Origin: Stegostoma tigrinum
Lineage: Eukaryota
Direction: 5' to 3'
Assembly: GCF_030684315.1 (NCBI RefSeq)
Contig: NC_081368.1
Location: 43,725,734 to 43,789,733 of the forward strand
DNA: 64,000 nucleotides
Position numbers and translations under genes: made by a program. Below the pieces are notes generated by a model, which was given only the letters and a program-made list of their open reading frames with translations, did no database searches and was not told where the DNA came from. Within the stretch, counting starts at the first letter, position 1. Each line of letters opens with the position of its first letter. Shown here piece by piece: positions 1-64,000 of this stretch.

Positions 1-199
1 AGAACAAAGTGTGTAGCTGGATGAACACAGCAGGCCAAACAGCATCTCAGGAGCATAAAAGCAGACGTTTCGGGCCTAGGTCTAGGCCTGAAATGTCAGC
101 TTTTGTGCTCCTGAAATGCGATGCTGCTTGACCAGCTGTGTTCATCCAGCCCCACCCTGTTATCTTGGATTTTCCAGCATCTGCAGTTCCCATTATCTC
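1..199. mobile_element. Palindromic PLE-terminus mini-element
   Basis: 1-79 is the reverse complement of about 82-165, with the symmetry centre at the CTAG of hammerhead stem II. The right arm carries the ~35-nt tail ending GCAGTTCCCATTATCTC. Confidence 0.85.
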
Positions 200-392
200 A
201 GTGCTGGGTCCACTGCTTTTAGTCACTTATAGATGATTTGGATGTGAATATAGGTGTGGTTAGTAAGTTTGCAGATGACACCGAAATTAATGGAGTTGAG
301 CACAGTGATGGAGGTTATCTCGGTGTACCAGGGGACCTTTGATCAGCTGGGCCAATGACCTAAACAGTGGCAATAGTGTTCAATTTAGATTT
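200..392 (+). mobile_element. CR1-type LINE RT fragment
   Basis: Degenerate translation SVLGPLLL...DDLD...VSKFADDT. Confidence 0.75.
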
Positions 393-401
393 ATTGAAAG
401 A

Positions 402-520
402 GTTGAAATGGTTTGTGACTGGGAGGTGCAGTTGTTTATTGCAAACCAAGCCTAGGTGTTCTGCAAAGCAGTCCCCAAGCCTCTGCCTCTGATGTAGTGG
501 AAGCCACACTGTGTACAGCA
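402..520 (-). mobile_element. PLE GIY-YIG fragment
   Basis: Matches 16199-16320 (GAAATGGTTTGTGACTGGGAGGTGCAGTTGTTTATTGC...). Confidence 0.8.
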
Positions 521-3467: not shown

Positions 3468-3591
3468 CAATACCAGCACTTGAGGCTCACTATTACCTAG
3501 AATGGTGACAAAACATCTGAAAACAAATCTTCCAGCAAGCAAACTTACATCCAGAACCTCAACCTGAGCTACAAATCTTCTCAAAGCTTGC
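3468..3591 (+). mobile_element. 124-bp insertion with TSD, probable second PLE-family terminus
   Basis: A perfect 13-bp TSD TGTTCTAAACAAA lies at 3455-3467 and 3592-3604. There is an internal hairpin TTACC-TAGAAT-GGTGA followed by CAAAACATC. Confidence 0.65.
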
Positions 3592-5510: not shown

Positions 5511-6379
5511 TTATTTGCAAGTACAAGACACAGCAATCATGTCCTTGTACTCTTTGTACACAATGTGATCATTTTGTTCCTTCAGCAGGACACTAATTGG
5601 ACTGTATTTCAGAGGGACACAAGATGGACGGGGCACATGTTTATCAACAATTTCATTAATAAAATTCTGCACTATGGCATGATTTGGAGAGTGGTAACCA
5701 TAGTGAAGAATTCTAGGACAGTCTCCCCTGCAGAATTTTGGATTGTACCTATGAGGAGCCACAATCCAATGATCCCAACCCAGTTGCTCAAAGCTTACCC
5801 AGAATGAATGGAGCTTGCATTTGTTCCTTGGAGGACTCGTAAGATAGTTAGGAACGACTGAGCCAATGTTGCTTAGTTGTCGTGGCTTCCTAGACAGGAC
5901 ACGGGATTTGGATGAACCCTCTAGAGATTGTTTTTCTGATTTTTCTTGTCTTTGATGTGCAGTTTTATCTGTGTCATTTAAATATAGTAGCAGAGAAGGC
6001 ACTTGTAAATGGACAGCATAGTTTTTTCTTTTGTCCAGAGTTCTTTCTTTGACTTTTCCAAATTCAGCACACTTGTAACTGATATGCAGATCCACTTTCT
6101 TCACAGAATTACCAGTTGGGAGAAAGACACAAGGAGTTACATCAGCTTCTGCCCATCGTTCATTCAGGTTTAATATAAACCTTATGGGCAATTCTATGTC
6201 AGTGGCATTCTGTATGAAGTTTAGATTAACATAGTTTGCAAGGAGACATCTGATTTCACAAGAGACTAAGAGTTGATTGGCAAGAGGACTGTGCAAATAA
6301 ACAACAACAACTTTAATCAAGTGCTCCAGCTCTGGAAGATAATGCAGATTGTATTGAACATGATGCACATGCCAATGAC
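5511..6379 (-). CDS. bmp15: BMP15 exon 2 (rest of prodomain, furin site, mature TGF-beta domain)
   Basis: The acceptor TCTCTTTTTTTAG|GT at 6380/6379 restores frame (G-H-W-H-V). The exon has an RKPR|Q cleavage site and a mature domain CKLHSFWVSFEQLGWDHWIVAP...SPNHAIVQN...VPRPSCVP...YKEYKDMIAVSCTCK. Ser replaces the dimerisation Cys, as in GDF9/BMP15. Total CDS is 1233 nt (410 aa). Adjacency to SHROOM4 favours BMP15 over GDF9. Confidence 0.95.
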
Positions 6380-7214
6380 CTAAAAAAAGAGACAGACATT
6401 GGAAATGTTAGCAGGGATTCAGTGCATCTTACTAGCAATTTATAAACTTCAACATTTCTTAGTAGGATGATGGAGTAATCTAGGATACTGCAGACTAGCT
6501 AAAGTTTGAGAGGGGAGATAGTGGTGTTCCAAAGATACTAAAACATTGATTTAGTATTCAAAATTCAAGCCTAAACAATACTTAAATTTCAAGGACAGGA
6601 TAGATTACACAGCAATTAACATTTTAAAAAGAGTTCACATTCATGCCATTCATTCTTACACTCTTCAGTGTCATCTGAAAAAGATGAAAGGTGACACTAG
6701 AACCCCTAAAGTCTTGAATTCAAGTGGAAGCCATCCAGGGACAACTACTAAGAGTAGTAGAGATAAAAGGTTATTATTCAATTAGACAATTGTTAAATTC
6801 AAATTTTCAGACATTCCATTTTAATTCCAATAACCACATAAAACATTCCACTTTTGAAGTATTCATGTACATTTATGTTTACTGGATTGCACAGTATTCC
6901 CCCAAAGGGAAGAGATGGAGTCACACACCCTTAGCAAAGTTTCAAAGAGAACATTGAGCTAGTGAGATTCTGCAGAAACTTACAAGTGGCATTGGTTAAA
7001 TATCAGTTATAACTTGATTTGCAGAGTGCTTTTGCAAATCCTGGGTTTAAAATCAAAGCTAAAGTTATCCCAGCTCTAAAAAAAAGTTGATTGTGTAGTA
7101 GGCTAAACTCACTACCCACGATTACAGTTTACCAATGCAGTTTGAAAGACACTGATCAATAATATAATGCTTTCATTGAACTTAAAACTAAGGTTCTAGC
7201 GGATGTTGATTTAC

Positions 7215-7578
7215 CGGAGTCGGCGAGCAGGATACTTGCACTGGGTTTCACCAACCGAATAGTGTTAGTCATAATGGTCCGGTTAGCTTTAGGCTTCCCA
7301 TCACGATCTGCTAACTGCTTGTAGAGAGTGGCCATATATTCCATGTGTTGATCATCCATCCCTTGTTTCGAGGGCAGCGGAGGACGGGGACTAACTTTTC
7401 CAGCCAACATCTCGATAAGGGGACCGAGGTCTCTAATCTCCCTCTCGGCAGGCGCTTGTTTCTCCCCAGCCCCTCCATGCAAAGCTACAAGCTCCAGCAA
7501 ACAGATCAAAACTCGGAATACGTTACGGCTACGATTCCGATTCATCACCCAGCACATGTTAGCTGCTAATGGTATCAT
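7215..7578 (-). CDS. bmp15: BMP15 exon 1 (signal peptide and N-terminal prodomain)
   Basis: The ORF 7578-> has a hydrophobic signal stretch (VFRVLICLLELVAL) and a prodomain segment (HMEYMATLYKQLAD..GKPK.NRTIMTNTIRLVKP) resembling BMP15. It ends at a phase-1 donor G|GTAAAT (intron starts 7214). The true start could be a downstream Met (MCWVM). Confidence 0.9.
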
Positions 7579-9249
7579 AGTACAAGTTTCTGCAAATCAG
7601 GCAGGACCATAGCTCTGAGGCACTACTAAACTCTAACACGCTACCCGCAAGGCTCCATAAAGCAGTTTGTGCAAATTAGCTCCTCATTAAGGGGATCTCA
7701 TGTGATATGATTGAATCGATCCATTGTCAGTGACGTATTTAATTTCCATTGGCATAAGTTAATGACTTTGATCAGATTGGTGGCACGATTATATCTGTTC
7801 AATGTGACGCAAATTTTTTATGATTAAGGAGTTACACTTTCGGTATTTAGAAATTTATGACTTATTGTATCCAGATTTCAGAAAGTACCCGGTTAAAAGC
7901 CAATTACATTCTTAATTATCTTAAAAGCGACTTTTCATTAGAACTTGGCGGCCTCCGCAATTGGAGCATCAGCATCGGACAAGGATATTTTCACGTGGGA
8001 TGCAATTGACCATTCTAAAATGTCTCGATGGAAAACTATTCTTCCTTTAGAATGTTTTTCCTCAACCTGTTCCAACATATTATGACACACCTCTAGAGCA
8101 TATGGGACTTGAACCCAGGCCTTTGGCATAGACATAGAGACACTAACACAGTGCCTCAAGAGTCTGATCTCCTCCCTTTAAGCTGATAGTAAATATCAAC
8201 CATTAATTTGTTAAATGGCTGTAAAAATATTTTTTCATCTTGATAAAAAGATTGGAGGACCATGGTTGGCTGTTTGTACTGTTCAGCTAATATTAGAATA
8301 GTCATCATATTAATAAAGAAGCTGCCATGAACAAAATTATTCATAATTTTCTGATTTAAAATGATAAACATATATTCATATGATGCTCTTCCTGTAGAAA
8401 AATAAATCTTGGTTTTTTTATTATAATTTAATCAGGTTTCCTTCAGTTAACAAAAGAAAAATTTCATTAGTTACAAATTGTGAGGAAAAAAAACAAACAA
8501 ATGCATATATTACAATAAGGAGCAAGTCCGAAAAAAGTTTAAAAATAAATATATATGGTTCAATCCCAGAGTCATTTGTGAAGAAAAGACAGTAGAATGC
8601 TGTAGCTATTAAATGGAATGGTAACAACAGTATTAACAATCTCAAGATTCTTGGCTTTTCAAACTGATTGAAATTCTTTTGTTCTGGTTCCTTTTAACAG
8701 AGGCTGACTGGTAGAACACAGATTGAGAGACAATTTTTTTTTCTTTTCTTTATTTGCAGTGCCGGAGTTTTTAATGGCTGCTCCCAAGCTGTGACCTTCA
8801 TAACACATTGACCCACACTTCTGGCAGTCTTGTGATTTTTTTAACCCCTTTTTTGTAAATCTTTGGAAGGGTAAGATACAAACCTGACTGCAAGAGAGAT
8901 GTATGTTGTCAGTATCTCATCATCTTTTCCTTGTCAGTTTTACAGTTTGAAGTTTCCCTCACCCTGTACGGGTGTGAGATCCCATGGTTCCACAGAGGAC
9001 TCTGCCAGACAGTTACTGAATTCATATCCATAGTCCACTTTGGCAGTTGCAGTGTTCTTTTGAAAAATAATGTATTGAAATTAAAAGTTTAATATGTCAG
9101 CCAGCCAGACACTTCGAAGGAACATTACTGGCATGTATGTTTTTAAGGGGAAATCACAATTGACTATCTTGCTGGAACATTTTTTGAAAAGGTAACTGAT
9201 TTTCAGGATAATGTTGCTAATGTGTGCATGGACTTTCAGAACGTTTGAT

Positions 9250-11840
9250 AAAATGTCAACACAACAGACTTGTGAACAAAGTAAGATAATAGAATTAGAG
9301 AGACAGTAGCAACAGAGATACGACATTGGCTGAGTGATGGGAAACAGAAAGCAATAGATAATTGATATTTTTGGGCTGGAAGAAGGTATGAAGAGTAGTT
9401 CTGCATTGGTTGGTATTAGGACACTTAGCTTTCCTGTTGCATATTAAAAATCCGGATGTGCAGGAACATATCCCAAAGTTTCCGCAGAATACAAAATGTG
9501 GAGGCATTGAAAACTCTGAGGACAGTTGTGAACTTCAAAAGGCATTGATAAGTTGGTGGAATAGACAGATAGGTAACAGATGAAATGGTAGGGTCATGTA
9601 TTCATAGACGTTTACAGCTCAGTAAAAGGCCCTTTGACCCATCAAGTCTGCATAATCAAAAACAACTACCTAACTATTTTAACCCCATTTTCCAGCACCT
9701 GTCCCATAATCTTGGATGTCTTGGCATCTTAAGTATGCATCTAAATACTATTTAAATATTATGAGGTTTTCTGACTCTACCATACTTACAGGCAGTAACT
9801 TCCAAATTAACACTCTTCCCATCATCAATCTCCTGCTGTACCCTTAATGTATGCCGTCTGGTCATTGATCCCCCTTTAAGGGGAAAAGTTCCTTCCTGTA
9901 CCCTGTTTATGCCTGTCATAATTTTATACATGTCAACATGTCCCCCTCAGTTTATTCTACTTCAGTCTATCCAATCTTTGTTCTTCTCAAGCCAGGCAAC
10001 ATTCTGGGAAATCACTACCAGACCCTGTCCAGCGCAATCACATCCTTCCTATTATGCATATTCCAGAACTGCACACAATTATCTAGTTGTGGCCTTACCA
10101 ATATTTTTTATAGTTCAAGCATAACCTTCCAGTTCTTAAACTCTGTGACTTGTCTAATAAAGGCAGGTGTTCCGTATGCCTTCTTAACCACTTTATGTTC
10201 CCGTCCTGCTATCTTAAGGGACCCATAGACATGTATACCAAGGTCATAGAGTCATGCAACACAAAAACAGGCCCCCAAGTTTCCCAAATTAAACTAGTCT
10301 CATTTGCCTGCATTTGGCCCATATTCCTTCAAACTTTTCTTATTCATGTACTTGTCAAACTGTTTTTTAAATGTTGTAACTGTACCTGCCTCTACCACTT
10401 CCTCTGATAGTTCATTCCTTTTATCTTCAGTGTGAAAAATAACACAGTGTGGAGCTGGAGGAACACAGCAGGCCAGGCAGCATCAAAGGAGCAGAAAGGC
10501 TGACATTTCAGTTTGGATAACGAGGGTGTAGAGCTGAATGAACACAGCAGGCCAAGCAGCATCAGAGGAGCAGGAAGGTTGACATTTTGGGCCTAGACCC
10601 TTCTTCATTATTTTCTGAAGAAGGGTCTAGGCCTGAAATGTCAGCCTTCCTGCTCCTTTGATGCTGCCTGGCGTGCTGTATTCCTCCAGCTCCACATTGT
10701 CTTATCTCTGACTCCAGCATCGGCAGTTCTTACTATTTCTGTGTGAAAAAGTTGCCCTTCAGGTCCTTTTTAAAACTTTCCCATCTCACTTTAAACCTAC
10801 GCCCTCTAGTTTTGAACTCCCATACCAAAGAACAAGATCTTTGCTATTCACTTTATCTATGTCCCTCCATCTGATTCTTGCTGCTTGCCTGAGTCCTACT
10901 GTTTATCATGTGCTTCCTCTCCTTATCTGTCCTGCCCTAGTGCACCAATACACACTTATCCAGATTGAATTCCATTTGCAACTGATCAGCCCATCTAACC
11001 AGCTCGTCTATGCCCTTCTGTAACCTAAGACTATTCTACTTAGCATTTGCCACCCCACTAACATCTGTATCATCTGCACATTTACTGATCAACCCTCCTA
11101 CATTCAAGTTGAAATCTTCTATATGTGCACCACAAGCAACAAGAGCCCCAATACTTATCCCTGTGGAACAGCACTGCACATAGGCTTCCAGTCACAAAAG
11201 ACTCCTCGGCCATCACCCTCAGCTTCCTACCACACAGCTAATTCTGCATTCAATTAGCTAAATTTCCTTTAATTTATGGGCTCTTACCTTTGTTATTGCT
11301 CCCCCCCCCCATTGTAGGACCTTATCAAACGCCTTGCTGAAGACTGAGTCAACTGTGTCAAATGCATTGCCCTCATCCACACAAATAGTCATCTCTCCGA
11401 GCAGATTCCGCTCAATGCAAACAAGTGTGAGGTGATACATTTTAAGATAGTACAATGTGAAGGGTACGACTCCAAAGAGTGTGCAGGACAAGAAGGACCT
11501 GAGTGTACATGTGGGTAAGTCAGTAAAGATGACAGGACAGGCAGAGAGACCAGTTAATAACACACACTGTGTTCTATACTTTAATAATAATGGATAGAGT
11601 ACAATAACAAGGAGGTTATGTTGAACTTGTGTAAGACACTAGGTAACCCTCAGCTGGAGCATTGTGTACAGATCTGCATGCCATTCTTCAGGAAGGATAT
11701 GACCAAATTGGAAAGAGAGCAGAATAGATTTACAAGAATTTTTTCAGGGATGAGGAATTTTAGTTATGAAAACAGATTGGAGAAGTTAGGACTGTTTTCC
11801 TTGGAAAGGAGAAGGGTAAGGAGAGATTTGATAGAAGATA
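9250..11840. mobile_element. Cluster of nested CR1/HER1-like LINE fragments in both orientations
   Basis: Frames include D.V...FSKAFDKV (11258-11563 -) and KTL..PQLEHCVQ...LEKLGLFSLERRR.R.DLIE (11618-11881 +). Minus-strand 3' tails lie near 9605 and 10246. Confidence 0.8.
10440..10740. mobile_element. Palindromic PLE-terminus mini-element nested in a CR1 fragment
   Basis: Two minus arms (10440-10510 and 10516-10608) and one plus arm (10615-10740), with a 10-bp TSD GTGTGAAAAA at 10430-10439 and 10741-10750. Confidence 0.85.
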
Positions 11841-15580: not shown

Positions 15581-15585
15581 GTCCA

Positions 15586-16782
15586 AGATAACAAAGTGTG
15601 AAGCTGGATGAACACAGCAGGCCCAGCAGCATCTCAGGAGCACAAAAGCTGACGTTTTGGGCCTAGACCCTTCATCAGAGAGGGGGATGGGGTGAGGGTT
15701 CTGAAATAAATTGGGAGAGAGGGAGAGAGGGGGAGGCGGACCGAAGATGGAGAGAAAAGAAGATGGGTGGAGAGAGTATAGGTGGGGAGGTAGGGAGGGG
15801 ATAGGTCAGTCCAGGGAAGACGGACAGGTCAAGGAGGTGGGATGAGGTTAGTAGGTAGGAAATGGAGGTGCGGCTTGAGTTGGGAGGAAGGGATGGGTGA
15901 GAGGAAGAACAGGTTAGGGAGGCAGAGACAGGCTGGGCTGGTTTTGGGATGCAGTGGGGGGAGGGGACGAGCTGGGCTGGTTTTGTGATGCAGTGGCGGG
16001 AGGGGACGAACTGGGCTGGTTTTGGGATGCGGTGGGGGGAGGGGAGATTTTGAAGCTGGTGAAGTCCACATTGATACCATTGGGCTGCAGGGTTCCCAAG
16101 CTGAATATGAGTTTCTGTTCTTGCAACCTTCGTGTGGCATCATTGTGGCACTGCAGGAGGCCCATGATTGACATGTCATCTGAGGAATGGGAGGGGGAGT
16201 TAAAATGGTTCGCGACTGGGAGGTGCAGTTGTTTATTGTGAACCGAGCGGAGGTGTTCTGCAAAGCGGTCCCCAAGCCTCTGCTTGGCTTCCCCAATGTA
16301 GAGGAAGCCACACCAGGTACAATGGATAGAATATACCACATTGGCAGATGTGCAGGTGAACATCTGCTTGATGTGGAAGGTCATCTTGGGGCCTGGGATA
16401 GGGGTGAGGGTGGAGGTGTGGGGGCAAGTGTAGCACTTCCTGTGGTTGCAGGGGAAGGTGCCGGGTGTGGTTGAGGTTGGAGGGGAGTGTGGAGCGGACA
16501 AGGGAATCATGGAGAGAGTGGTCTGTCCGGAAGGCAGTTGCAAAGCGGTCCCCAAGCCTCCGCTTGGTTTCCCCAATGTAGCGGAATTGCAAAGCGGTCC
16601 CCAAGCCTCCGCTTGGTTTCCCCAATGTAGAGGAATTGCAAAGCGGTCCCCAAGCCTCCGCTTGGTTTCCCCAATGTAGAGGAATTGCAAAGCGGTCCCC
16701 AAGCCTCCGCTTGGTTTCCCCAATGTAGAGGAATTGCAAAGCGGTCTCCAAGCCTCCGCTTGGCTTCCCCAGTGTAGAGGAA
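15586..16782 (-). mobile_element. Penelope-like element 3' fragment (GIY-YIG plus terminal repeat) with tandem array at its 5' end
   Basis: High similarity to 38000-38840. A tentative degenerate TSD is TACTACCTGTCCA (15573-15585) / TACGACCTGTCTA (16791-16803). Confidence 0.92.
16538..16782 (-). repeat. Five tandem copies of a 49-bp unit derived from the GIY-YIG 'YIGETKRRLGDRF' coding segment
   Basis: The unit TTGCAAAGCGGTCCCCAAGCCTCCGCTTGGTTTCCCCAATGTAGAGGAA starts at 16538, 16587, 16636, 16685 and 16734, with no spacers. Confidence 0.95.
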
Positions 16783-37880: not shown

Positions 37881-40431
37881 AGATAATAGGAACTGCAGAT
37901 GCTGGAGAATCCAAGATAACAAAGTGTGGAGCTGGATGAACACAGCAGGCCAAGCAGCATCTCAGGAGCACAAAAGCTGACGTTTCGGACCTAGACCCTT
38001 CATCGGGGAGAGGGTTCTGGAATAAATAGGGAGAGAGGGGGAGGCGGACTGAAGATGGAGAGAAAAGAAGATAGGTGGAGAGGAGAGTATAGGTAGGGAG
38101 AGGATAGGTCAGTCCAGGGAAGACAGACAGGTCAAGGAGGTGGGATGAGGTTAGTAGGTAGGAAATGGAGGTGCGGCTTGAGGTGGGAGGAAGGGATGGG
38201 TGAGAGGAAGAACAGGTTAGGGAGGCAGAGACAGGCTGGGCTGGTTTTGGGATGCAGTCGGGGGAGGGGATGAGCTGGGCTGGTTGTGTGATGCAGTGGG
38301 GAGAGGGGACGAACTGGGCTGGTTTTGGGATGTGGTGGGGGAAGGGGAGATTTTGAAGCTTGTGAAGTCCATATTGATACCATTGGGCTGCAGGGTTCCC
38401 AAGCAGAATATGAGTTGCTGTTCCTGCAACCTACGGGGGGCATCCTTGTGGCACTGCAGGAGGCCCATGATGGACATATCATCTGAAGAATGGGAGGGGG
38501 AGTTAAAATGGTTCGCGACTGGGAGGGGCAGTTGTTTATTGCGAACCAAGCGGAGGTGTTCCGCAAAGCGGGCCCCAAGCCTCCGCTTGGTTTCCCCAAT
38601 GTAGAGGAATTCACACCAGGTACAATGGATGCAGTATACCACACTGGTGGATGTGCAGATGAACCTCTGCTTAATATGGAAAGTCATCTTGGGGCCAGGG
38701 ATAGGGGTGAGGGAGGAGGTGTGGGGGCAAATGTAGCACTTCCTGCGGTTGCAGGGGAGGGTGCCAGGTGTGGTGGGGTTGGAGGGCAGTATGGAGCGAA
38801 CAAGGGAGTCACGGAGAGAGTGGTCTCTCCGGAAGGCAGACAAGGGTGGGGATGGAAAAATGTCTTGGTTGGTGGGGTGGGATTGTAGATGGTGGAAGTG
38901 TCGGAGGATGATGCGTTGTATCTGGAGGTTGGTGGGGTGGTGTGAGAGAACAAGGGGGACCCTCGTTGGGCGGTTGCGGCGGTGACGGGGTGTGAGGGAT
39001 GTGTTGCGGGAGATGCGGTCAAGGGCGTTCTCGACCACTGTGGGGGGAAAGTTGCGATCCTTGAAGAGCTTGGACATCTGGGATGTGCGAGAGTGGAATG
39101 CCTCATCCTGGGAGCAGCGGAGGCGGAGGAATTGGGAATAGGGGATGGAATTTTTGCAGGAGGGTGGGTGGGAGGAGGTGTATTCTAGGTAGCTGTGGGA
39201 GTCGGTGGGCTTGAAATGGACATCAGTAACTAGCTGGTTGCCTAACATGGAGACTGAGAGGTCCAGGAAGGTGAGGGATGTGTTGGAGATGGTCCAGGTG
39301 AGCCTGAGGTTGGGGTGGAAGGTGTTGGTGAAGTGGACGAACTGCTCGAGCTCCTCTGGGGAGCAAGAGGTGGCGCCGATACAGTCATCAATGTAACGGA
39401 GGAAGAGGTGGGGTTTGGGGCCTGTGTAGGTGCGGAAGAGGGACTGTTCCACGTGACCTACAAAGAGGCAGGCATAGCTGGGGCCCATGCGGATGCCCGG
39501 GGCCACCCCCTTAGTCTGTAGGAAGTGGGAGGAATCGAAAGAGAAGTTGTTGAGGGTGAGGACGAGTTCGGCTAGGCGGATGAGAGTGTCGGTGGAGGGG
39601 GACTGGTCGGGCCTGCGGGACAGGAAGAAGCAGAGGGCCTTGAGGCCATTTGCATGCAGAATGCAGGTGTATAGGGACTGGACGTCCATGGTGAAAATGA
39701 GGTATTGGGGGCCAGGGAATTGGAAGTTCTGGAGGAAGTGGAGGGCATGGGTGGTGTCACGGACGTAGGTAGGGAGATCCTGGACCAAAGGGGAGTAAAT
39801 GGAGTCCAGATAGGTGGAGATGAGTTCGGTGGGGCAGAAACAGGCTGAGACAATTGGTCGACTAGGGCAGACAGGTTTGTGGATTTTGGGAAGGAGATAG
39901 AAACAGGCCGTGCGGGGTTGGGGAATAATAAGGTTGGAGGCTGTGAGTGGGAGGTTCCCTGAGGTGATGAGGTCATGAATGGTGTTGGAGATGATGGTTT
40001 GGTGCTCGGGGGTGGGGGCATGAACAAGGGGGCGGTAGGAGGAGGTGTCGGAGAGTTGGCGTTTGGCCTCGGCGATGTAGAGGTCAGTGCGCCATACTAC
40101 CACTGCACCACCCTTGTCTGCGCGTTTGGTGAGGTTGGGGTTGGAGCAGAGGGAGTGGAGGGCTGCCTGTTCTGCGGGGGAGAGGTTGGAGTGGGTGAGA
40201 GGGGTGGAGAAGTTGAGGCGGTTACTGTCTCGATGGCAGTTGGAAATGAAGAGGTCGAGGGAGGGTAGGAGGCCTGGGGGTGGTGTCCAGGAGGAGGACT
40301 TGTGTTGGAGGCGGGTGAAGGGGTCAGTGGAGGGAGGGTGAGGCTCCTGGTTGAAGAAGTAAGCGTGGAGGCGAAGGCGGCAGAAAAGCTGCTCTATGTC
40401 CAAACGTGGGTGGCGGAAAAACTGCTCTATG
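37881..40431 (-). mobile_element. Penelope-like retroelement (Neptune-like), 5'-truncated
   Basis: The 728-aa open frame 40403-38217 has RT motifs (ADKGG, FTMDVQSLYT, RYIDD), a Cys-rich linker CNRRKCYIC and a GIY-YIG domain (VVYCIHC..C..LYIGETKRRL..RF.EH). A 3' terminal repeat with tail follows. A perfect 14-bp TSD AAAGGAACAATAAG lies at 37867-37880 and 40432-40445. Confidence 0.95.
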
Positions 40432-41004
40432 AAAGGAACAATAAGTTACCTTTTAAAGACGAACTGCTTTGGGTAAAATTGAGGTCCACTCTCAAATAGG
40501 AAAGATCAGAGAAACTAATTCAGAGCTGTCTGGCTGATAGAAGAAATAGGAAGTAAAATGAAGAAGATAAAATGGGCATATGATTGATATCAAATTGATA
40601 ATGGAAGTACAGAACAGGCTGAATACAAAAAAATTCAGTGGAGAGTGTGAAAACTAATAAGAGAATCAAAATCAAGAATATGAATTAAATATTACTCAAG
40701 TTGAAATCCAAAAACCCACATCAGCATTTTGCATCACACATCATATCATCATCTTATAATCAGCAATCCATTTGTTTACCTATTCCTCTTCTCTCACTCT
40801 CTCTCGCGCTCTCTCTGGCCCCATCTCCATGCATCTTAGTCTCCCCACCCATCACAAACATAAATATCACCTTTTTGCAACTCTTTTCAGTTCTGACAAA
40901 GGGTCACTGAACTCCAAAATGTTAACAGTTTCTCTCTCTACCAGACCGCTTCAATTTCACAATTAATTTCTATTTTTATTCCAAAAGTTGCTTTTTTTTT
41001 CTTT

Positions 41005-42177: not shown

Positions 42178-42497
42178 AAACAACTGCAGATGCTGGAAAT
42201 TTGTAACACACAAAATAGAAGTTGCTGGAGAAACTCAGCAGGCCTGGCAGCATCAGAGCAGAGAAAACAATTAACATTTTGAGTCCGGTGACGACTGTTC
42301 AGAACCATCGATAAATGTGTCCTTGTGGATGTTGGGCAAGAACGAGATTAGATGTGGTCCACTTTGTATTTGTATTTGAATAACATCAATATTTCTTGCC
42401 CAGGCATTCTGAAGAAGGATGACAACTCAAAATGTTAACTTTGTTTTCTGTCTACAGATGCTGCCAGACCTGTTGAGTTTCTGCAACAATTTCTATT
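42178..42497. mobile_element. Older inverted pair of PLE-terminus-related repeats
   Basis: The minus arm 42178-42305 and plus arm 42405-42497 are imperfect reverse complements with decayed CTGAAGAAG...AAAATGTT cores. Confidence 0.65.
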
Positions 42498-42684
42498 TTA
42501 AATGTTACAACACCTATCAAGCCAGATTTCATTCTTTGGGATGTGCCTTACCCAGTAGTACCATCAGCTGATGGCCTAACAAGTATAATAAAGATATGTC
42601 ACCTTTGATGCACAGCAGTTATTTCAGCAAGTTGTTGTAATACATAGTGATGTGATGTGATGTGGATTCACAGCTATAACTTAT

Positions 42685-45670
42685 TTATTTTTATTCTGTT
42701 GTGGGATGTAGACACTGCGAGCTGGGCCAGCTCCTAGTTGCCGTTGAGAAGGTGGTGGTGCATTGCTTTCTTGAACTACTACGTTCATACACTCTAGGTT
42801 GACCCACACACCATTAGGGAGGGAATTCCAGAATTTTGACCTTAATGGTGAAGGAACAGTGAAATATTTTCAAGTGAGAATGGTGATTGGCTTGGAGGAG
42901 AACTTGCAGTTGATGGAGTTCCCATGAATCTGCTTTCTTTGTCCTCCTAGATGGAAGTAGTTGTGAGCTTGGAAGGTGCAGACTAAGGACTGACCTGCTC
43001 TTGTAGCCACTGTATTTATATGGCAAGTCCAGTTAAGTTTCTGATCAATGGTAACCCCGACTAAGTTGATCATGAGGATTTCAGTAAAGGTAACACAATT
43101 GAATGTCATGGGGCATGGTTTGATTGTCTCTTATTGGAGATGGTCACTGTGTGGTGTAGATTTTATGTAACTTTTCATATATAAGATTTTACATAAGATT
43201 TTATACTTGTCAGCCCACACCTGGATATTGCCCAGATCTTGTTGCATTTGAACATGGCCTGCTTCATTGTCTGAGGAGTCATCAATGATACAGAACATTG
43301 TGCGGTCATCAGCAAACTCCCCCACTTCTGAACTTAGGATGGAGGAATGGATACAGCAGTTGAAGCAGTTGGGACTAGGACACTACCCTGAGGAACTCCT
43401 GCAGAGGTGAATGACCTGTAACTTCCACATTCATCCTCCTGTCAGCCAGGTATGATTCCAGCCAGTGGAGAGTTTTTCCCTGATTTCTATTGATTCCAGT
43501 TTTGCTAGGGCTCCTTGATGGCATACTCAGTCGAACGCACCTTTGATGTCAAGGGCTGTCACTGTCACTCTCACGTCACCTCTGGAGTTTTCTATCCATA
43601 TTCGAACCAAGGCAGTAATGAGGTCAGGAGCTGAGTGGTCCTGGCAGAACATAAACTGGGTGTCACTCAGCAGGTTATTGCTGAACAGGTGCTGCTTGAT
43701 AGCACTGTTGGTAACACCTTCCATCACTTTACTGATGATCAAGAGTAGATTGATAAGGCAGTAAATGGCTAAGTTGGATTTGTCCTGCTTTTTATGTACA
43801 GGACATACTTTGGTAATTTTCCACATTGTTGGGTAGATGCCCGTGTGGTAACTGCACTGGAGCAGCTTGGCTAGGGGCAAGGTAAGTTCTGAAGCACAAG
43901 TCTTCAGTACTATTGCTGGAATGTTGTCAGGCCCATAGTCTTCACCATATCCAGTGCCTCCAACCATTTCATCATACCAGTAGGAGTGAATCGATATGGC
44001 TGAAGACTGGTTTCACTGATGCTGGGGACCACAAGCCGGCCAAGATGGATCATCCGCTCTGCATTTCTGGCTGCAAAATGCTGCAAATGCTTCAACCTTC
44101 TCTTTTGCACTGATGTGTTGTGCTGTTTCATTATTGAGGGTGGGAATGTTTGTGGAATCTCCTCCTCCAGTGAGATACTTAATTATCCACGACTATTCAT
44201 GATTGAATGTGGCAGGACTACAGAACTTTGGTCTGATCTGTTGGTTACGGGACCCCTTAGCTCTGCCTGTCACTTGTTGCATATGCTGCTTGGCACACAG
44301 TAGTCCTGTTTGGTGGCTTTACCAGGTTGATACCTAATTTTCAAGTATGCCTGGTGCTGCTCCTGGCATGCCCTCTTGCAATCTTCATTGAACCAGGGTT
44401 GATCCCCTGGCTTGATGGTAATGGTTGAGTGGAGGATATGCTGGGCTATGAGGTTACAGATTGTGCTGGAGTACAATTCTGCTGCTGTTGATGGCACACA
44501 ACACCTCATAGATGCCTGGGTCTTGAGTTGCTACGTCTGTTTGAAGTCTGTCCCATTTAGCTTCATGATAACACCCAACAACATGATGGAGGGTGGATTT
44601 TGTCCCCACAAGGACTTTGTGGTGGTCGCTCTTACTGTTATATGAAGATATATCTGCAGCCAGCAGATTGGTAAGGATGAGTTCAAGTACATTTTTACCT
44701 CTTTTTGATTCTTTCATCACCTGCCACAGACCCAATCAAGCAGTTATGTTCTTTAGGACCCAACCAGCTCAATCAGTAGTCGTGTTGCTGAGCCACTTTT
44801 GGTAGTGTACATTGAAAACCCCTGACCCAGAGCACATTTTTCACTATTGCCATTTCTAGCTGAGTGGGTACCATGGTCAGCATGGACCAGTTTAGGCCGA
44901 AGGTCCTGTTTCCGTGCTGTATTACTGTATGACTGTATCTCAGAACTGCCTCCAAATGTTGCTCATCAGCTGAGGAAGAACAGTATATGGTCATCACAGG
45001 AGGTTTCCTTGCCCATCTTTATCTGATGCTACAAGATGTCATGTGTTTGAGATTAAGTAAGAACTTTCAAGGCACCACCACTTAGATCAAGGACATGTCT
45101 AGGGATGGCAATGGTAATGGTGGTGTGTGGGACATAGTCAAACTCTGGACCATTCCTTAGAGACAATGCCAAGTTATTGCTTCACTGGCCTGTGAGACAG
45201 TTCTCCCAAATTTGGTACTAACTCCCAAATGTTGCTAAGGAGGACTTTATAGGGTCAACAGGGCTGTTTTTGCCTTTGTTGTTTCCAGTGCCTGGGTTGA
45301 TGCTGGGTGATCCATCTGGTTTTATTTCTTGTTGAGACTTCATACCAATTGATACAACATGAGTAGTGTGCTAGACCATTTCATAGGGCAGTTGAGCGTT
45401 GACCCATTGCTGTGGACCTGGAGTCACACGTGGGCCAGACCAAGTGATGATGGTTAATTTCCTTCCCTGAAGGACATTAGTGAACTGGATGGGTTTTTCC
45501 TGATGACTGTAAAGCTTTCATCTGAAGAAGCTTAATTCTAAATTTTTTTTTAAACGAATTGCAAATTCCATTATCTGCAGTAGTGGGTTTGGAACTTGGG
45601 TCCTCAGTACATTAGCTGAGTTTCTGGATCAGTAGTCTGATGATAATACTACTATGCCATCACCTCCCCT
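42685..45670 (-). mobile_element. Decayed near-full-length CR1-clade LINE with internal deletions
   Basis: Broken frames give endonuclease (VPNLGELSH; RGKNVLELILTN..SDH), PWFN, and RT (GPDNIPAIVLK, WK..KVCPVHKK, ALDIKGAFD, FADD). The 3' tail at about 42690-42780 is shared with 12770-12860. A tRNA-like head lies at 45670-45560. Confidence 0.85.
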
Positions 45671-47120: not shown

Positions 47121-47330
47121 TTTAAGACAAATGAAAATAACTAAAATGAGGCATAAAGTGGCATATAGCATTAGTAATTAAAAGCATAATTACAAGTACT
47201 TCTATAATGTACAGATAAGCATCTTTTAAGACAAATGAAAATAACTAAAATGAGGCATAAAGTGGCATATAGCATTAGTAATTAAAAGCATAATTACAAG
47301 TACTTCTATAATGTACAGATAAGCATCTTT
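47121..47330 (+). repeat. Perfect 104-bp tandem duplication
   Basis: TTTAAGACAAATGAAAATAAC...GATAAGCATC starts at 47121 and 47225. Confidence 0.95.
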
Positions 47331-47598
47331 GCCAAAAGTAGAAACAGTGATTTAGTATTTTGTTAAGAATCTTATCTGTGGCGTGTTGGAGGGCCTCTTA
47401 CCTCTTCAATTTTTGATTCCACATTACTTTCTAAAGTTAACCATTTTGCAATCCTAAAATTTCATACTTTTCTTTGGAAATATTACTGCATTGACTTGGA
47501 GTTATCTGTGCTGATGTAAAGACTGTACTCAGGATCAGTTATTGAAAACCTTCGACTGCAGGAATTGAGAGAATGCACGTGGGCCAATCTCACCCATG

Positions 47599-49971
47599 TA
47601 ACTGCTGTCGAGACATTAACCGCCTCAACCTCTCCACCCCTCTCACCCACTCCAACCTCTCCCCCGCAGAACGGGCAGCCCTCCGCTCCCTCCGCTCCAA
47701 CCCCAACCTCACCATCAAACCCGCAGACAAGGGTGGCGCATTGGTAGTATGGCGCACTGACCTCTACATCGCCGAGGCCAGACGCCAACTCTCCGACACC
47801 ACCTCCTACCGCCCCCTCGATCATGACCACACACCCGAGCACCAAACCATCATCTCCAACACCATTCACGACCTCATCACCTCAGGGGACCTCCCACCCA
47901 CAGCCTCCAACCTCATTGTTCCCCAACCCCGCACGGCCCATTTCTATCTCCTTCCCAAAATCCACAAACCTGCCTGCTCTGGTCGACCCATCGTCTCAGC
48001 CTGCTCCTGCCCCATCGAACTCATCTCCACCTATCTGGACTCCATTTACTCCCCTTTGGTCCAGGAACTCCCCACCTACGTCCGTGACACCACCCATGCA
48101 CTCCACCTCCTCCAGGACTTCCAATTCCCTGGCCCCCAACACCTCATATTCACCATGGACGTCCAGTCCCTGTACACCTGCATTCTGCATGGAGATGGCC
48201 TCAAGGCCCTCCGCTTCTTCCTGTCCCGCAGGCCCGACCAGTCCCCCTCCACCGACACACTCATCCGCCTAGCTGAGCTCGTCCTCACACTCAACAACTT
48301 CTCTTTTGACTCCTCCCACTTCCTACAGACTAAGGGGGTGGCCATGGGCACCCGCATGGGCCCCAGCTATGCCTGCCTCTTTGTAGGTTACGTGGAACAG
48401 TCCCTCTTCCGCACCTACACAGGCCCCAAACCCCACCTCTTCCTCCGGTACATTGATGACTGTATCGGCGCCGCATCTTGCTCCCCAGAGGAGCTCGAAC
48501 AGTTCATCCACTTCACCAACACCTTCCACTCCAACCTTCAGTTCACCTGGGCCATCTCCAGCACATCCCTCACCTTCCTGGACCTCTCAGTCTCCATCAC
48601 AGGCAACCAGCTTGTAACTGATGTCCATTTCAAGCCCACCGACTCCCACAGCTACCTAGAATACACCTCCTCCCACCCACCCTCCTGCAAAAATTCCATC
48701 CCCTATTCCCAATTCCTCCGCCTCCGCCGCATCTGCTCCCACGATAAGACATTCCACTCCCGCACATCCCAGATGTCCAAGTTCTTTAAGGACCGCAACT
48801 TTCCCCCCACAGTGATCGAGAACGCCCTTGACCGCGTCTTCCATATTTCCCGCAACACATCCCTCACACCCCGCCCCCGCCACAACCGCCCGAAGAGGAT
48901 CCCCCTCGTTCTCACACACCACCCTACCAACCTCCGGATACAACGCATCATCCTCCGACACTTCCGCCATTTACAATCCGACCCCACCACCCAAGACATT
49001 TTTCCATCCCCTCCCCTGTCTGCTTTCCGGAGAGACCACTCTCTCCGTGACTCCCTTGTTCGCTCCACACTGCCCTCCAACCCCACCACACCCGGCACCT
49101 TCCCCTGCAACCGCAGGAAATGCTACACTTGTCCCCACACCTCCTCCCTCACCGCTATCCCAGGCCCCAAGATGACATTCCACATTAAGCAGAGGTTCAC
49201 CTGCACATCTGCCAATGTGGTATACTGCATCCACTGTACCCGGTGCGGCTTCCTCTACATTGGGGAAACCAAGCGGAGGCTTGGGGACCACTTTGCAGAA
49301 CACCTCCGCTCAGTTCGCAACAAACAACTGCACCTCCCAGTCGCAAACCATTTCCACTCCCCCCTCCCATTCTCTAGATGACATGTCCATCATGGGCCTC
49401 CTGCACTGCCACAATGATGCCACCCGAAGGTTGCAGGAACAGCAACTCATATTCCGCCTGGGAACCCTGCAGCCTAATGGTATCAATGTGGACTTCACTA
49501 GTTTCAAAATCTCCCCTTCCCCTACCGCATCCCTAAACCAGCCCAGTTCGTCCCCTCCCCCCACTGCACCACACAACCAGCCCAGCTCTTCTCCCCCCCC
49601 CCCCCACCCACTGCATCCCAAAACCAGTCCAACCTGTCTCTGCCTCCCTAACCTGTTCTTCCTCTCACCCATCCCTTCCTCCCACCCCAAGCCGCACCCC
49701 CAGCTACCTACTAACCTCATCCCACCTCCTTGACCTGTCCGTCTTCCCTGGACTGACCTATCCCCTCCCTACCTCCCCACCCATACTCTCCTCTCCACCT
49801 ATCTTCTTCACTCTCCATCTTCGGTCCGCCTCCCCCTCTCTCCCTATTTATTCCAGTTCCCTCTCCCCATCCCCCTCTCTGATGAAGGGTCTAGGCCCGA
49901 AACGTCAGCTTTTGTGCTCCTGAGATGCTGCTGGGCCTGCTGTGTTCATCCAGCCTCACATTTTATTATCT
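47599..49971 (+). mobile_element. Penelope-like retroelement, 5'-truncated, young copy
   Basis: The 602-aa frame has KPADKGG, GVAMG, RYIDD and GIY-YIG. A +1 C in the C-run at about 49359-49364 shifts the C-terminus. The terminal repeat has an intact hammerhead core. No clean TSD was seen. Confidence 0.95.
49879..49908 (+). ncRNA. Minimal type I hammerhead ribozyme motif in the PLE terminal repeat
   Basis: CUGAUGA-A-[GGGUCUAGGCCC stem II]-GAAA-CGUC. The palindromic ACGU stem III is compatible only with dimeric folding. Minimal hammerheads are an established feature of PLE pseudo-LTRs. Confidence 0.7.
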
Positions 49972-52299
49972 AGGTACTTGTACTTAGGCAGGTCTGTTGG
50001 ATGTCGATGACTGATCCAAGATTGATGCAATGCCTCATAGCCAGTCATTGAGATCTTGAAACCTTGATGAGCACCATTAGACATTCATCAAATGTGAGGA
50101 GTAAATAATTATGTGTGGGGGGAAAAATTAAACAAATGTGATATTTCTTCACAGATGCTCCTGACTTGTGTTTTTCCAGCATATTTAGTTTTTGTTTTGA
50201 TTTCCAGCATCCACATAATATTGCTTTTTTTAAAATGATTTAAGTTTCTTGTGCTGAAGGTCACTTTCAAATGCAGTTCAAAGTCTGTTTAAGCACTCTG
50301 TGTTTTCAATGAATAGCTCACTCTGCCTATTATTTAGAACGTTGTCACAACCTTCAGGCAAGTCCACCACGAGGTCAGTAAATTGTAAACGAATATAACT
50401 CCTGTAGTCACCTTTTTGGTTTGTGGTGTTTCAAGTTAAAGCATGCTAATTGTTTAATTACAAGTTCATGCTGAGAGTTCTTTTGAGGGTAAACTGATAA
50501 AGCTATGAACAAGAAATTACAAAAATATTAAAACAAATACAAATAAGACAGAAGCTTATGAACAGAAACTCTGTTAGTCTCTGTGATATGCTGTTGCTTG
50601 AGTTCCTCGACGCTGCAGAGAATAGGTTAACATTTAAAGTCATATTTGCAGCTGTAATGGTGCATTGGTTAAGAGGTGGTGTTTTCTTTAAAAGGTGCTT
50701 TCCTCAAAATAGAAGACTTTGAAAGAGATTGACAATTCCTTGATCTTTACAATTTCTGTGATTTTTTTTTAGCACTTTCTGTCTGCCTTTCCTTTAACAG
50801 AACACTGTTTCATTTCTGTGCACCTTTTTCCTTTATGTCTCCTTTGCAAAACCTGTTCTAAGGGTGGTTCTCAAAGCCACCTCTGCACATTGCTTGTTCT
50901 TGGCCAGGTTTCTGTATACAGTTCAAAATGGAGGAATGTCAATTTAAGGGAGTTAAGGGTGCCGTAAAGCAAAGAAACCCCTTCTTAAATTTATTCCTCA
51001 CATTTGCTGTTTCTTTGTGAAGTTAGAATTCTCACATCTTTCATTGTTTTGTGATCCTAGCAGTTGTTACTACTGGATAAATCCACACCTGGACTAATAT
51101 TTGATTTGATGGATTTCTTGAAATTACCAAGGTGATCTTTCAGCCAAACACAGCAAGTAGCACTGTAGATCATTCTTTTTTTTACCCCCTGGTTTTACAA
51201 TAAAATAGAAGTTTACACAAAAGAAAAGATAAAATAAATCAAGCTGTTTACGTTTAACACAATTTGGAAGATTTCTAAGCATACAGTAAAAATACACTTC
51301 CATCTATCCCAGCAATATCCCTTTAAAGATACCCAATCACTAGAGAAAATTCCCTTCTCTATCAAATCTATAGGTATGACATAACTATTGTTTTTAATTC
51401 CTGGTGTTGTAAACACCAGCATCTTCCTTGAGTATTCACACAACTAAGCTTAGACTACCTCAGCTTCAAATTACCCTTTTCCAAATTCTAACCAAGCACT
51501 TCAGGTATGGAACTTATGAATTATGGCAGCGCTAGCAAGATAGGCAGCATTCAGGCTGTCCATTCACTCCAGACCAACCACATTTCCACCCCCCCCCTTC
51601 CTTTTTGTCTTTTTTTAATCTTTTTCTCCTTCATCTTCGTGTTGGCAATGGCAGAGGAGGGATGGAGGATGGCTGAAGTGGGTTTCTTGGTGAGGTGGCA
51701 GCCTGGTCTGACAGCAGATCCAGAGACTCTTGATTGTGATATTCCCTGATCATGGACGACAGGAGTCACTAAGGCAGCAGCTGCAGCAGAGACAGGGCTT
51801 CCAGGTTGTGGTAGGCCCAGAGCAGGGACTCCTGGTTGTTGGCATGATGGCAGCAGCTCCTCGTTGTGGTAGGCTTGGAGCTAGGGACTCCAGATTCTTG
51901 GTAAGGCAGCCATGGCAATGGAGGTGGGAGTTCCTGGTTGTTGGGCAAGTATGCGCCCAACTTGGGACCCGGCATTGTCAGTCAGTTGGTGAGGTGGGCT
52001 CAGCCACGAAGAGGATGGCACCCGACTCCTACATTTGTGGGTACAGTACAGGCTGTTTAATGATGGTGCAGGTGTCGTGGTTCAGCTGGCTGACAGCCCA
52101 GGAATCCTGCTGGAGGCAGCAGAATGAAGATGAGTTTCTTTCAGGTTTTAAAAAAATTCTTTGAACAGTTACATTGGCACCAGATTGTCTTGACAGTTGA
52201 AGCTTTTTGCTGTATTTTACTATGTTGCTCATTATAGACTACAACCGACAATAAATCATCATCCGTTCAAAATCCTTAAACTGAGGTAACATGCTTCCT

Positions 52300-61100: not shown

Positions 61101-63816
61101 TGCAGCAGCATTAAAATCTGTATATATCTTTGTTTCAACGAATGGTCAATTTTCCCAAGTTGCATTTTCATCAGGCATGTTTTCCTAAATGATGAGAGAC
61201 ACAGGCAAGGAAGGCAAAAGTCCTAGCTGTTGCTGTCACATTCATTTTTCCCTTCTGTGTTCTGCTCTAAAGTGGCAATTGAAGTTTAGTTGACTTTTTA
61301 TGTCAGAGCCTAGCTCTATTGTCTTTACAAGCTGGCTAACTGGCAGGTGAACCTTTCATGTCCCAATATTTGAAATTATCATACATGTGTAAATTAAACA
61401 GAGATAACAATTTCTTGACACAGACTCAGTTGCCTGGTTTCAGTGCCTTTATCTAAAATACCAATTTGAATCAGATGCCTTAGTTTATTCCACATAGGTC
61501 TCCGAAGCTTGTGGCAATCTATTAGGTAACCATCGTTGTAAAGTTAGGTCCATGAATCTAACACTTTGAAATGGTAGAAGTTAAAACTTAATATTTACGA
61601 CTATCATAACATCTCACTTATTTTCAGTGACGTCAAGTTCTTGTGTTAATCTTTCCTTGCATCTGCAGCATTCTTTTGTCTTGCCAATGTAAATGTTGCT
61701 TTAGTATGTTTTAAAATATGGTGTTTCAAGCCACCAAGGGAAAAGCAGTAAAGAAAAAGAAAATGTGGAGAGACAAAAGCATTTCACAGGCAGTTCTACT
61801 TCCATGTGAAGTACCATGATCTGTATCATCTCCCTACCTCTCATTCCTGGAGTTGGGTTTTAATAATCCCAATGTTCATTTTAAAAGAGGTCCCCTCAAG
61901 GACATCTGTAGTCTGTTTCACACCTGTTAGGAAACATGTTTTCATCCTTCAATATTCTCAAAATGTAAAAATCTAACAAAACCATATGCTCCTCATTCTC
62001 TGTTATGTTCATTATTCTCCTTCTAGGAATCTAAAGTTTAGCTGCTTTTTCAAGTCTTATTTTCAGAACTTCATAAACCTATGAGCTCCTGTGGGAGCTT
62101 GACAAGTTGCTGAAGGGATGTTTCATTTTGCGGGAGTGCGTGAGGACACAGTTTAAAAGTAAGGAGTCTCCTACTGAAAGTTGAAAGTAGGGGATCGTTA
62201 TCTGAATGTCATGGATCGGTGGAATTCTATTCCCCAGTGCGTGGTGAAGGCAGAGTTAGTAAATATTTTTAAGACAGAGTTAAATTATTGGGAGTAGTCA
62301 GGAAAAGGGAGTTCAACTGCAATTGGATCGGCAATGATCTTTTGAAATGACGGAGCAAGCTCAAGAGGTCAAATGACCTCCTCCTGTATCAGCAACCTAA
62401 TCAGTGAGGTGACTGTCTGTCTGAAACCGTTAAACCACAATTGTTAATTGAGATCTTCTGATGTATGGATCTTGGGACTTGTTACAGGAGACATTATAGT
62501 GATGGCTTCCTGTCTTTCACTGACCTCCAAATGGAAGTTTAACAAACTCCTGCAATGAGTTTTGTTTTGTCATAGCCACTCTGACTTATGCTTGGAAATA
62601 GCTGGTACCTGGGAGCAACTTTTTTTTTTGGCATTTTCCCTTCCCATGGCACCATAAAGTTCTACTCCTGTTGCATTATGAACAGAAATTGTAGTGTGGA
62701 AGTAAAACAATTGTGTATAACAAATCTGGACAGAAGTGAAAATGTGTAGAGGCCTGAGAGATTTTAAAATACTTGTGAAACGATTCAGACATAAAATATT
62801 TCTTCTCGGTGATTTGATTTATTTTCTATTATTGACAATGCAGAATGGAAAATAGAGGAAATGGGTTATTTCCACCTTGTGAGGTGAGTTAACCTGATTA
62901 TGTTTAATTATACTGTAGCTTTTTGTATATTTATCTATAAAATTCTGCTTTTAGCATATGCTGGTCTGAAGGCTGGAAATTCAGGAGTTTTTAAACAATA
63001 AGTAACACTCAACATTCTGAATATAATCTTCCATCTTTATTATTTGAATTCTGTTCCTCCCGTCCACTCACCCACCCATATGGGTGGTGAATCGAGCTGA
63101 ACCATCATCAAATTGGAAATTACATTTTGTTAGTGTTCAGGAAGATTATGGACTATTACTGTGGAGTGACTTGCCTATGCAAGGACAATGTGACCATTCT
63201 TGTCTCTGAAATGTGGGAAATGGAAAATTACCCAACTTGTTCAATTCAACATCGAGAAAACATTTCACTCTGCTGGTCAAATTGCCAGTGTTTAATTCCT
63301 AGCATGTGGTCTGACTAGTGTTGCCAAAAAGTAACTTCTGACTGGCTGGCTGGCTGACTGACTATATTCGGAAGTAGGTGGTGCAGATAAGTTGACCCTT
63401 TGTAAGCTGTGGCCAGTACATTAATCATTTGTATGCAAAGCCTGCAGTTTTGATAGTATTCCAGTTCAGATCTTCAAACCTGGTGGACATCTGTTGTATC
63501 AAGAATCCTGAACCCATTCTTACCAATTTGAAAGGGATTAGAAATGTGACAGTTGTGACTTCTGTAATGAGGAGAGAGAGATCATGCTGTTGCAACTATA
63601 GAACAGAGAACAGTACAGCACAGGAGCAGGCCCTTTGGCCCACCATATCTTTGCTAACCATAACTCCATACCAAATTAATCCCATCTGCCTGCACATGGA
63701 CCGTGTTCCTCCATCCCTCTATTTCCTGCCTGTCCATGTGCCTCGGTAAGTGGCTATCATCTGTTCTTCTGCTACTTCTCCTGGTACTTAACTGTTCTGG
63801 ACACCTACCACCACCT

Positions 63817-63970
63817 AAATAACAAAGTGTGGAGCTGGATGAACACAGCAGGCCAAGCAGCATCTCAGGAGCACAAAAGCTGACATTTTGGGCCTAGACC
63901 CTTCATCAGAGAGGATGATCAGAGAGACTTTGTTATGTTGGATTCTCCACCTTCTGCAGTTCCCATTATC
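63817..63970. mobile_element. PLE-terminus mini-element with short inverted arm
   Basis: Minus arm 63817-63912 and plus-strand tail 63927-63970, flanked by CACCTACCAC at 63802-63811 and 63970-63979. Confidence 0.8.
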
Positions 63971-64000
63971 ACCTACCACACCCTGTTTTTTTTAAAAAAA

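Follow-up and report, generated by a model that had tools for sequence, protein, structure and literature searches.

The question raised by a 64,000-nt stretch of the Stegostoma tigrinum genome (contig NC_081368.1 of assembly GCF_030684315.1, positions 43,725,734 to 43,789,733 of the forward strand; hereafter the window, numbered from its first letter) is whether short insertions built from inverted 3′ termini of a Penelope-like element (PLE) multiply by themselves or arise each time from the integration of the PLE. An initial annotation of the window had left two readings side by side: two-ended priming products of a Neptune-like PLE, or a self-propagating, retrozyme-like RNA family. The data indicate that the minis, by which we mean inverted pairs with both arms <=140 nt, form the short extreme of the two-armed insertions that a Neptune-type PLE makes, and no new mobile family. 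Each palindrome was probably assembled afresh when it inserted, as a dead-end product of two short cDNAs of the PLE mRNA leader. A second proposal is held more tentatively, and is slightly easier to doubt than to accept: that thousands of these palindromes are fossil records of hammerhead cleavage in vivo, in which one RNA was copied twice by a dimeric enzyme and the two cDNAs primed each other's second strand.

The parent element is represented in the window by a young, 5′-truncated copy at 37879-40445 (minus strand), which comprises the reverse transcriptase (RT), a CX4CXXC linker, the GIY-YIG region and the tailed terminus, and by a second 5′-truncated copy at 47546-49974 (plus strand), which is 91% identical to the first and has a tail-less end. 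A GIY-YIG-type motif is visible in the translation of the single open reading frame (ORF), where the RT is followed by a C-terminal endonuclease (EN); the Pfam matches to RVT_1 (E 7e-5) and GIY-YIG (E 0.002) were weak, both under the curated cut-offs. The CX4CXXC linker between RT and EN is present in ORFs 38217-40445 and 47546-49381. Since a CX2-5CXXC linker in this place marks the Neptune type (PMC8557442), the parent fits an EN-bearing PLE of that type, an assignment by linker motif under which Nematis is formally possible. In this respect the reading of the insertions as two-ended priming products of a Neptune-like PLE was supported. In three full-length copies (L191, L192 and L195; 30 loci examined) the terminus and tail are located directly upstream of the ORF, with the ATG ~39 nt past the tail, which places the ribozyme and the tail in the mRNA leader.

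For an unbiased view of the genome, 140 tiles of 10 kb (1.4 Mb), evenly spaced over its 3.2 Gb, were analyzed; pairs in the tiles were detected with a 60-nt filter on the arms. Genome-wide pattern searches were also used, in which backwards-read control patterns for palindromes gave 0 matches, and those counts that were made by hand cover the first matches listed, drawn from the first contigs. Positions in the terminus are numbered backwards, with -1 at the tail end, on L091:6242-8115(-), a natural copy that is the medoid of 18 long tailed copies and serves as the reference. On this scale -129 is the first base of the hammerhead core, cleavage is predicted between -102 and -101, and tail-less ends fall at ~-37. 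When 37879-40445 served as the reference, a false pile-up of 5′ ends appeared at -126/-129, due to a private deletion of that copy just upstream of the ribozyme.

With the descriptor of minimal type-I hammerheads of metazoan PLEs (PMC4209133), an intact motif was found in the parent terminus at 49875-49910 (plus strand), with the core from 49879 and the predicted cut between 49906 and 49907 (position -101); base 49875 corresponds to a boundary of arm 5′ ends at -133 that is described below. The motif matched 89 times in the tiles and the window and 0 times in the reversed tiles. It has the core, the bulged base before helix II, the G10.1-C11.1 pair in helix II and the palindromic 15.2-16.2 of the published metazoan motifs (PMC4209133), as well as a helix I, the pairs of which co-vary between subfamilies (CT/AG in 50, TT/AG in 17 and TT/AA in 10 of the 89 motifs). 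Families with GUU instead of GUC at the predicted cut were also seen. Among 15 Rfam matches at E <= 5 there was no match to a hammerhead model, and the matches to microRNA (miRNA) models were far under threshold. Judged by its sequence features, the motif in the terminus is a real minimal type-I hammerhead, for which self-cleavage is predicted.

The tiles contained 293 termini and 68 inverted pairs, 54 of the pairs being minis, which scales roughly to ~155,000 inverted pairs and ~120,000 minis in the genome. Exactly one arm carried the tail in 64 of the 68 pairs, and the arms were never joined tail to tail (0/68). The two arms of a pair were matched in size, with 54 mini-mini, 12 long-long and 2 mixed combinations (Fisher p 2e-11). 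A target-site duplication (TSD) of at least 11 bp surrounded the whole unit in 36/54 minis and 9/14 longer pairs, while a match of at least 10 bp was found at 20/300 random places; in both size classes TSD lengths peaked at 13-15 bp. The TSDs and the one-sided tail common to the size classes indicate that the minis are the short end of a published type of insertion, the inverted pseudo-long terminal repeat (pLTR) insertion of EN-bearing PLEs, which is likewise a head-to-head, 5′-truncated copy with a 30-40-nt tail at one end, a palindromic junction and a single TSD (PMC3846280; PMC8557442; PMC2377424). The head-to-head inverted layout with the tail had thus already been described (PMC3846280; PMC8557442). 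What differs here from these published insertions is that the coding part is usually absent and that the copy number is of the order of 100,000; in comparison with the TSDs of 8-10 bp of rotifer PLE copies, those measured here are 13-15 bp long, and the inner ends cluster at two fixed bases. Beyond the published layout, the data add two classes of arm 5′ ends, the second located at the predicted cut.

Two further observations were made on single arms in the tiles. Among short unpaired arms, a TSD of at least 11 bp was found around 8/14 tailed but 2/14 tail-less ones, and one-armed tail-less insertions may resolve differently. Haplotype H1 accounted for 38/72 long arms but 24/106 short arms, so that subfamilies may differ in the number of stubs they leave.

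All five places in which the initial annotation had seen PLE 3′ termini head to head do hold them. The mini at 1-199, which starts ~33 bases before the window, has arms beginning at -117/-120, inside hammerhead stem II, and no TSD was found for it; when the adjoining DNA (L040) is read, its left arm runs on to -4 and both arms are tailed. The older two-armed insertion at 1172-1878 (1163-1878 between TSDs) has arms reaching ~-325/-324, the tail on the left arm and an exact 12-bp TSD (1151-1162/1879-1890), and both its arms carry the same 3-nt deletion in the hammerhead core. At 10436-10740 lies a three-arm insertion of an older subfamily, composed of two tail-less tandem arms on the left (minus strand) and a tailed arm from -130 to -1 (plus strand), with a TSD of 14 bp containing one mismatch (10426-10439/10737-10750). 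The pair at 42178-42510 belongs to an older, more diverged PLE family, with the tail on the left arm, a spacer of ~105 nt and degenerate cores, and no TSD was found for it. The insertion at 63817-63970 is a lopsided mini, in which a tail-less arm from -134 meets, over a 14-nt filler, a tailed arm of 46 nt only (-134/-46), inside a 10-bp TSD (63802-63811/63970-63979). Its left arm has G12 changed to A, and the right arm contains no ribozyme. The junctions, this one included, appear to be real, which rests on the TSDs and the copy numbers. The earlier description of these insertions was thus accurate in part: TSDs do surround three of the five, although with lengths of 12, 14 (one mismatch) and 10 bp rather than 10-12 bp, and the restriction of the tail to one arm holds in four and fails at 1-199. 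The term hammerhead-bearing, on the other hand, suits only the right arm of 10436-10740, which has a near-intact predicted core, while the cores of the other window arms appear broken or absent.

We propose the following route for the origin of the palindromes. The enzyme would cut both target strands ~14 bp apart, and each free 3′ end would prime reverse transcription; one cDNA would begin at the tail end and the other ~35 nt further in, as at the two positions where synthesis starts in vitro with the anole element. Both cDNAs, usually made from the same RNA, would run off the RNA 5′ end, which would be either the transcription start (-133) or, after self-cleavage, the base following GUC (-101). 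The cDNA 3′ ends would then be trimmed slightly and pair through microhomology or be joined blunt, after which each cDNA would serve as template for the other, giving a palindrome. Long two-armed copies would form by the same route from the terminus at the ORF 3′ end. The anole element, Poseidon of Anolis carolinensis, likewise carries a hammerhead, and its two RT start sites are also close to the beginning of the ORF; in vitro, both strands are cut and extended, the tail corresponds to the distance between the start sites, and a dimer is predicted (PMC11167929). A difference is that the Poseidon ORF starts inside the hammerhead (PMC11167929), while here it starts ~39 nt past the tail and the clade is Neptune-like. 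If true, the double copying of one RNA would account in one step for the tail, the inverted pLTR and the second-strand synthesis of PLEs. In the twin priming of LINE-1, both target ends likewise use a single RNA as template and microhomology joins the two cDNAs, but a different, upstream segment is inverted there, whereas here the same segment is copied twice. The mode of PLE integration and the role of the hammerhead in vivo are named as open questions in PMC11167929, PMC8557442 and PMC4209133. In this regard ~100,000 stubs in one genome are a large sample of integration products, and the proposed route makes two predictions that are exact to the base, namely that the RNA starts at -133/-134 and that its cleaved form begins at -101.

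The comparison of the two arms of each insertion bears on whether they were copied from one RNA. The haplotypes of the arms agreed in 55 of 58 typed loci (71 distinct loci), as compared to 47% expected, and the arm-to-arm divergence in 45 young pairs was 5.0%, versus 9.2% in shuffled pairs (lowest of 1000 shuffles 7.3%). The 5′ ends were matched as well, because 29 of 33 young minis had both arms in the same class, 10 with both starting after the predicted cut and 19 with both before it, while 4 were mixed (p 4e-5). Matched arm lengths, shared alleles and hairpin-like centers could also be explained by self-priming, which has been proposed for the palindromes at PLE junctions (PMC3846280). In this explanation one cDNA would fold back on its own 3′ end, with an endonuclease or a template jump ending the second arm ~35 nt short, and there would be no double copying of one RNA. 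Self-priming predicts that the tailed arm reaches further in the 5′ direction, but it was longer in 30 pairs, shorter in 30 and equal in 4. Moreover, a second arm made in this way cannot gain a tail that was not copied, and yet two-tailed copies exist, including L277, in which the tail alleles differ between the arms. The tail-less end also matches an RT start site observed in vitro for the anole element (PMC11167929), and the three-arm insertions (L284 and 10436-10740) argue for repeated priming on RNA. We therefore regard self-priming as unlikely, although it is the strongest competitor of the double copying of one RNA. Two-tailed copies with different alleles, such as L277, suggest that two RNAs are sometimes used, and gene conversion between arms could also have raised their likeness.

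The second line of evidence comes from the arm 5′ ends. Among 168 young arms the rate of 5′ ends per base was 0.002 from -200 to -141, 0.021 from -135 to -115, 0.003 from -114 to -102 and 0.011 from -101 to -80. Hence, the ends form two walls, each with a slope downstream. Exact matches beginning at -133/-134 numbered 10,604, and none of the first 50 listed among the 8,207 palindromes whose two arms reach beyond -121 extended past -134, though the pattern allowed -145. PLE transcripts are known to begin in the upstream pLTR (PMC6765202; PMC2377424), and together with the location of the terminus in the leader this makes the start of the PLE transcript the best reading of the -133 wall, which thus likely marks an RNA start. 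We take the wall to fit a TCT-type initiator consensus as well, but only weakly, as it sits in a pyrimidine tract. At -134 the base was G in ~13 and A in ~2 of ~36 non-partner contexts among 100 matches listed (hand count). A cap-derived G is not claimed, as palindromic addition and a general G/AG bias explain this count equally well.

The downstream wall coincides with the predicted scissile bond. Out of 1,604 matched palindromes, 595 were centered on the cut-site AGCT, the four bases after GUC; among the first 50 listed, AGCT was found in 21, GGCC in 6 and the equally long ACGT four bases upstream in 2 (hand count; p 7e-5). The AGCT palindrome also made up 16 of the first 50 listed in another pattern search. 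When it was excluded, 100 ends listed of 1,013 were distributed as 17 at -99, 10 at -100, 42 at -101, 17 at -102 and 14 at -103 (hand count), and 13 of the 17 at -102 belonged to one partner-derived join. Because the AG before CT in the young family is possibly a palindromic addition, the count was repeated in an older subfamily, in which the cut is followed by AGCC. There, 100 ends listed of 255 gave 30 at -99, 13 at -100, 28 at -101, 5 at -102 and 24 at -103 (hand count), with 19 of the 30 at -99 and 13 of the 24 at -103 representing two microhomology joins. The edge at -101, with almost no ends at -102, therefore recurs in a subfamily that lacks the self-complementary AGCT. In L284, three arms lie inside one TSD and every one of them starts at -101. 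These data suggest that the -101 edge likely marks the predicted GUC cut of the hammerhead. PMC4209133 calls in vivo evidence for these hammerheads absent, so that the insertion ends would give indirect evidence of their cleavage in vivo; the same source describes hammerhead pairs on opposite strands, 100-700 bp apart, in Schistosoma. A class of insertion ends at the ribozyme cut was not found in the literature searched, with subscription journals outside the search.

Two other patterns were observed near the cut. In 6 of 100 matches listed from contigs C1-C2, the ribozyme hairpin was skipped, with start-site bases joined to cut-site bases, and matches 106-130 bases apart on the same contigs resemble tandem units that start at the cut.

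The two walls could alternatively be sites of RT stalling or trimming on ordinary 3′-end templates, at the C-rich tract at -133 and at a hairpin base near -100, with no role for the ribozyme. This explanation is consistent with the coincidence of the upstream wall with the start of a C run, with the end of a predicted hairpin at -100, with the somewhat elevated number of ends at -99 and with the general AG bias at 5′ junctions. On the other hand, the hairpin is predicted to be weak (-11.4 kcal/mol), no better than shuffles, and once chance extension is allowed for there are almost no ends at -102 in either subfamily. Additionally, the edge coincides with the scissile bond in two subfamilies whose downstream sequences differ, and the published transcription start in the upstream pLTR (PMC6765202; PMC2377424) argues against this explanation. 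We consider stalling or trimming improbable, a little more so than self-priming.

Several observations weigh against the interpretation of the walls as RNA ends and of the palindromes as twofold copies of one RNA. Only 2 of 168 young arms in the unbiased tiles, both in one pair, start exactly at -101, while most of the post-cut class starts a few bases further downstream. A stall of the RT at -100, where the hairpin predicted over the ribozyme terminates, could look like the cut. The AG before CT in the young family could be a palindromic addition to an end at -99, and the older subfamily, which alone is free of the AGCT confound, gives 28 ends at -101 versus 13 at -100 (p 0.03). AG also precedes the 5′ junction in 6/37 unpaired short arms; such a general bias means that the -101 count is somewhat inflated and that a cap-derived G at -134 is unprovable. 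We infer the RNA ends at -133 and -101 from the ends of genomic insertions. For the anole element, the substrate was predominantly unprocessed RNA and no RNA-seq reads begin at the cut (PMC11167929), while here some genomic copies, a minority class, do begin there. Helix I is just 2 bp long in 78/89 motifs. With respect to the arms, 2/68 pairs have two tails and 2/68 have none, and in the 12 long pairs arm lengths were without significant correlation (rho 0.27, p 0.39). Finally, four extra inverted pairs, in which the tailed arm is very short, escaped the 60-nt filter and were present among 76 unpaired young arms; their loss weakens the table of matched arms.

The structure of the junctions bears on the remaining explanation, in which the palindromes would be a non-autonomous hairpin/ribozyme RNA family, transcribed and re-inserted in trans by the PLE enzyme. 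The initial annotation had proposed shared junctions, combined with a star-like phylogeny, as a sign of such amplification. Some junctions are indeed shared, with 595 exact copies of one and 38 of another, but propagation is not the reason, since the same template ends and microhomologies are used repeatedly. The 33 young minis had 31 distinct junction coordinates, and among the first 50 listed of the 8,207 palindromes no junction was seen more than 4 times (hand count). The -127/-121, leader-start and AGCT junction sets were each found on all three parent haplotypes, and the same haplotypes occur in long copies. The -127/-121 junction had resembled a family of its own, as it made up 16 of the 39 top matches; this was an artefact of query selection, and its 38 exact copies genome-wide fall on three haplotypes. 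Even inside the AGCT set the outer end of tail-less arms is not fixed but ranges from -55 to -29, and the cut-site palindromes lack any ribozyme. Four palindromes that were folded are predicted to be 78-89% paired, and in further predicted folds the core letters are mostly paired. Animal non-LTR retrozymes are, like the palindromes, non-coding, PLE-derived and hammerhead-related, but they are described as tandems of head-to-tail units in which each consecutive unit has a complete ribozyme (bioRxiv 10.64898/2026.07.22.740005), whereas the units here are inverted, most window arms are without an intact core, and descent from a master unit, visible as a shared junction with private changes, was not found. 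Although exact junctions recur, the arms of one copy carry the same alleles, a core deletion is common to both arms of 1172-1878 and non-autonomous PLE derivatives are known (PMC8557442; bioRxiv 10.64898/2026.07.22.740005), the diverse junctions, the recurrence of the shared ones on every parent haplotype, the long copies of the same anatomy and the predicted core-pairing hairpins make a self-propagating family very improbable and largely refute it for the bulk of the palindromes. For annotation, this means that the palindromes should not be catalogued as a miniature inverted-repeat transposable element, miRNA or retrozyme family.

A different arrangement was observed in L103:4977-6183 (G000:C22), which contains non-coding units of ~300 nt, each consisting of the terminus from -198 through the tail and the first ~104 nt past the tail. 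The units are arranged head to tail, with a hammerhead region in each, plus an inverted arm, and related joins at other offsets were seen in L048:9214-9627, L072:79-294 and L075:6067-6247. Units of this kind resemble true PLE derivatives of retrozyme type or of circular origin more closely than the palindromes do.

The window also contains further PLE copies. A truncated, tail-less parent copy with a weak GIY-YIG match lies at 15582-16782 (minus strand), and its internal expansion, in which a GIY-YIG-coding stretch of 49 bp is present five times in tandem (16539-16782), is located at the 5′ junction, suggesting repeated template jumps. A truncated, tailed parent terminus at 26384-26673 (minus strand) is flanked by a 374-bp direct repeat (96%) spanning 25928-27046, which may have arisen by local duplication or be a target duplication of very great length. 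An older truncated and tailed copy occupies 31893-32890 (plus strand), with a TSD of 12 bp containing one mismatch, and an exact 106-bp tandem duplication at 47121-47330 precedes the PLE copy at 47546 by a short distance. As to host genes, in whose pre-mRNA intronic copies had been suggested to form double-stranded RNA, two ORFs on the minus strand, 5514-6407 and 7159-7596, resemble exons of the TGF-beta family (Pfam TGF_beta E 9e-31 for the first) and are presumably BMP15/GDF9-like. None of the five insertions lies between them, and no further host-gene family reached the Pfam cut-off among the 91 scanned of 152 ORFs of at least 75 aa. A fragment of a separate LINE-type reverse transcriptase, with a weak RVT_1 match, was found at 43530-44012 (minus strand).

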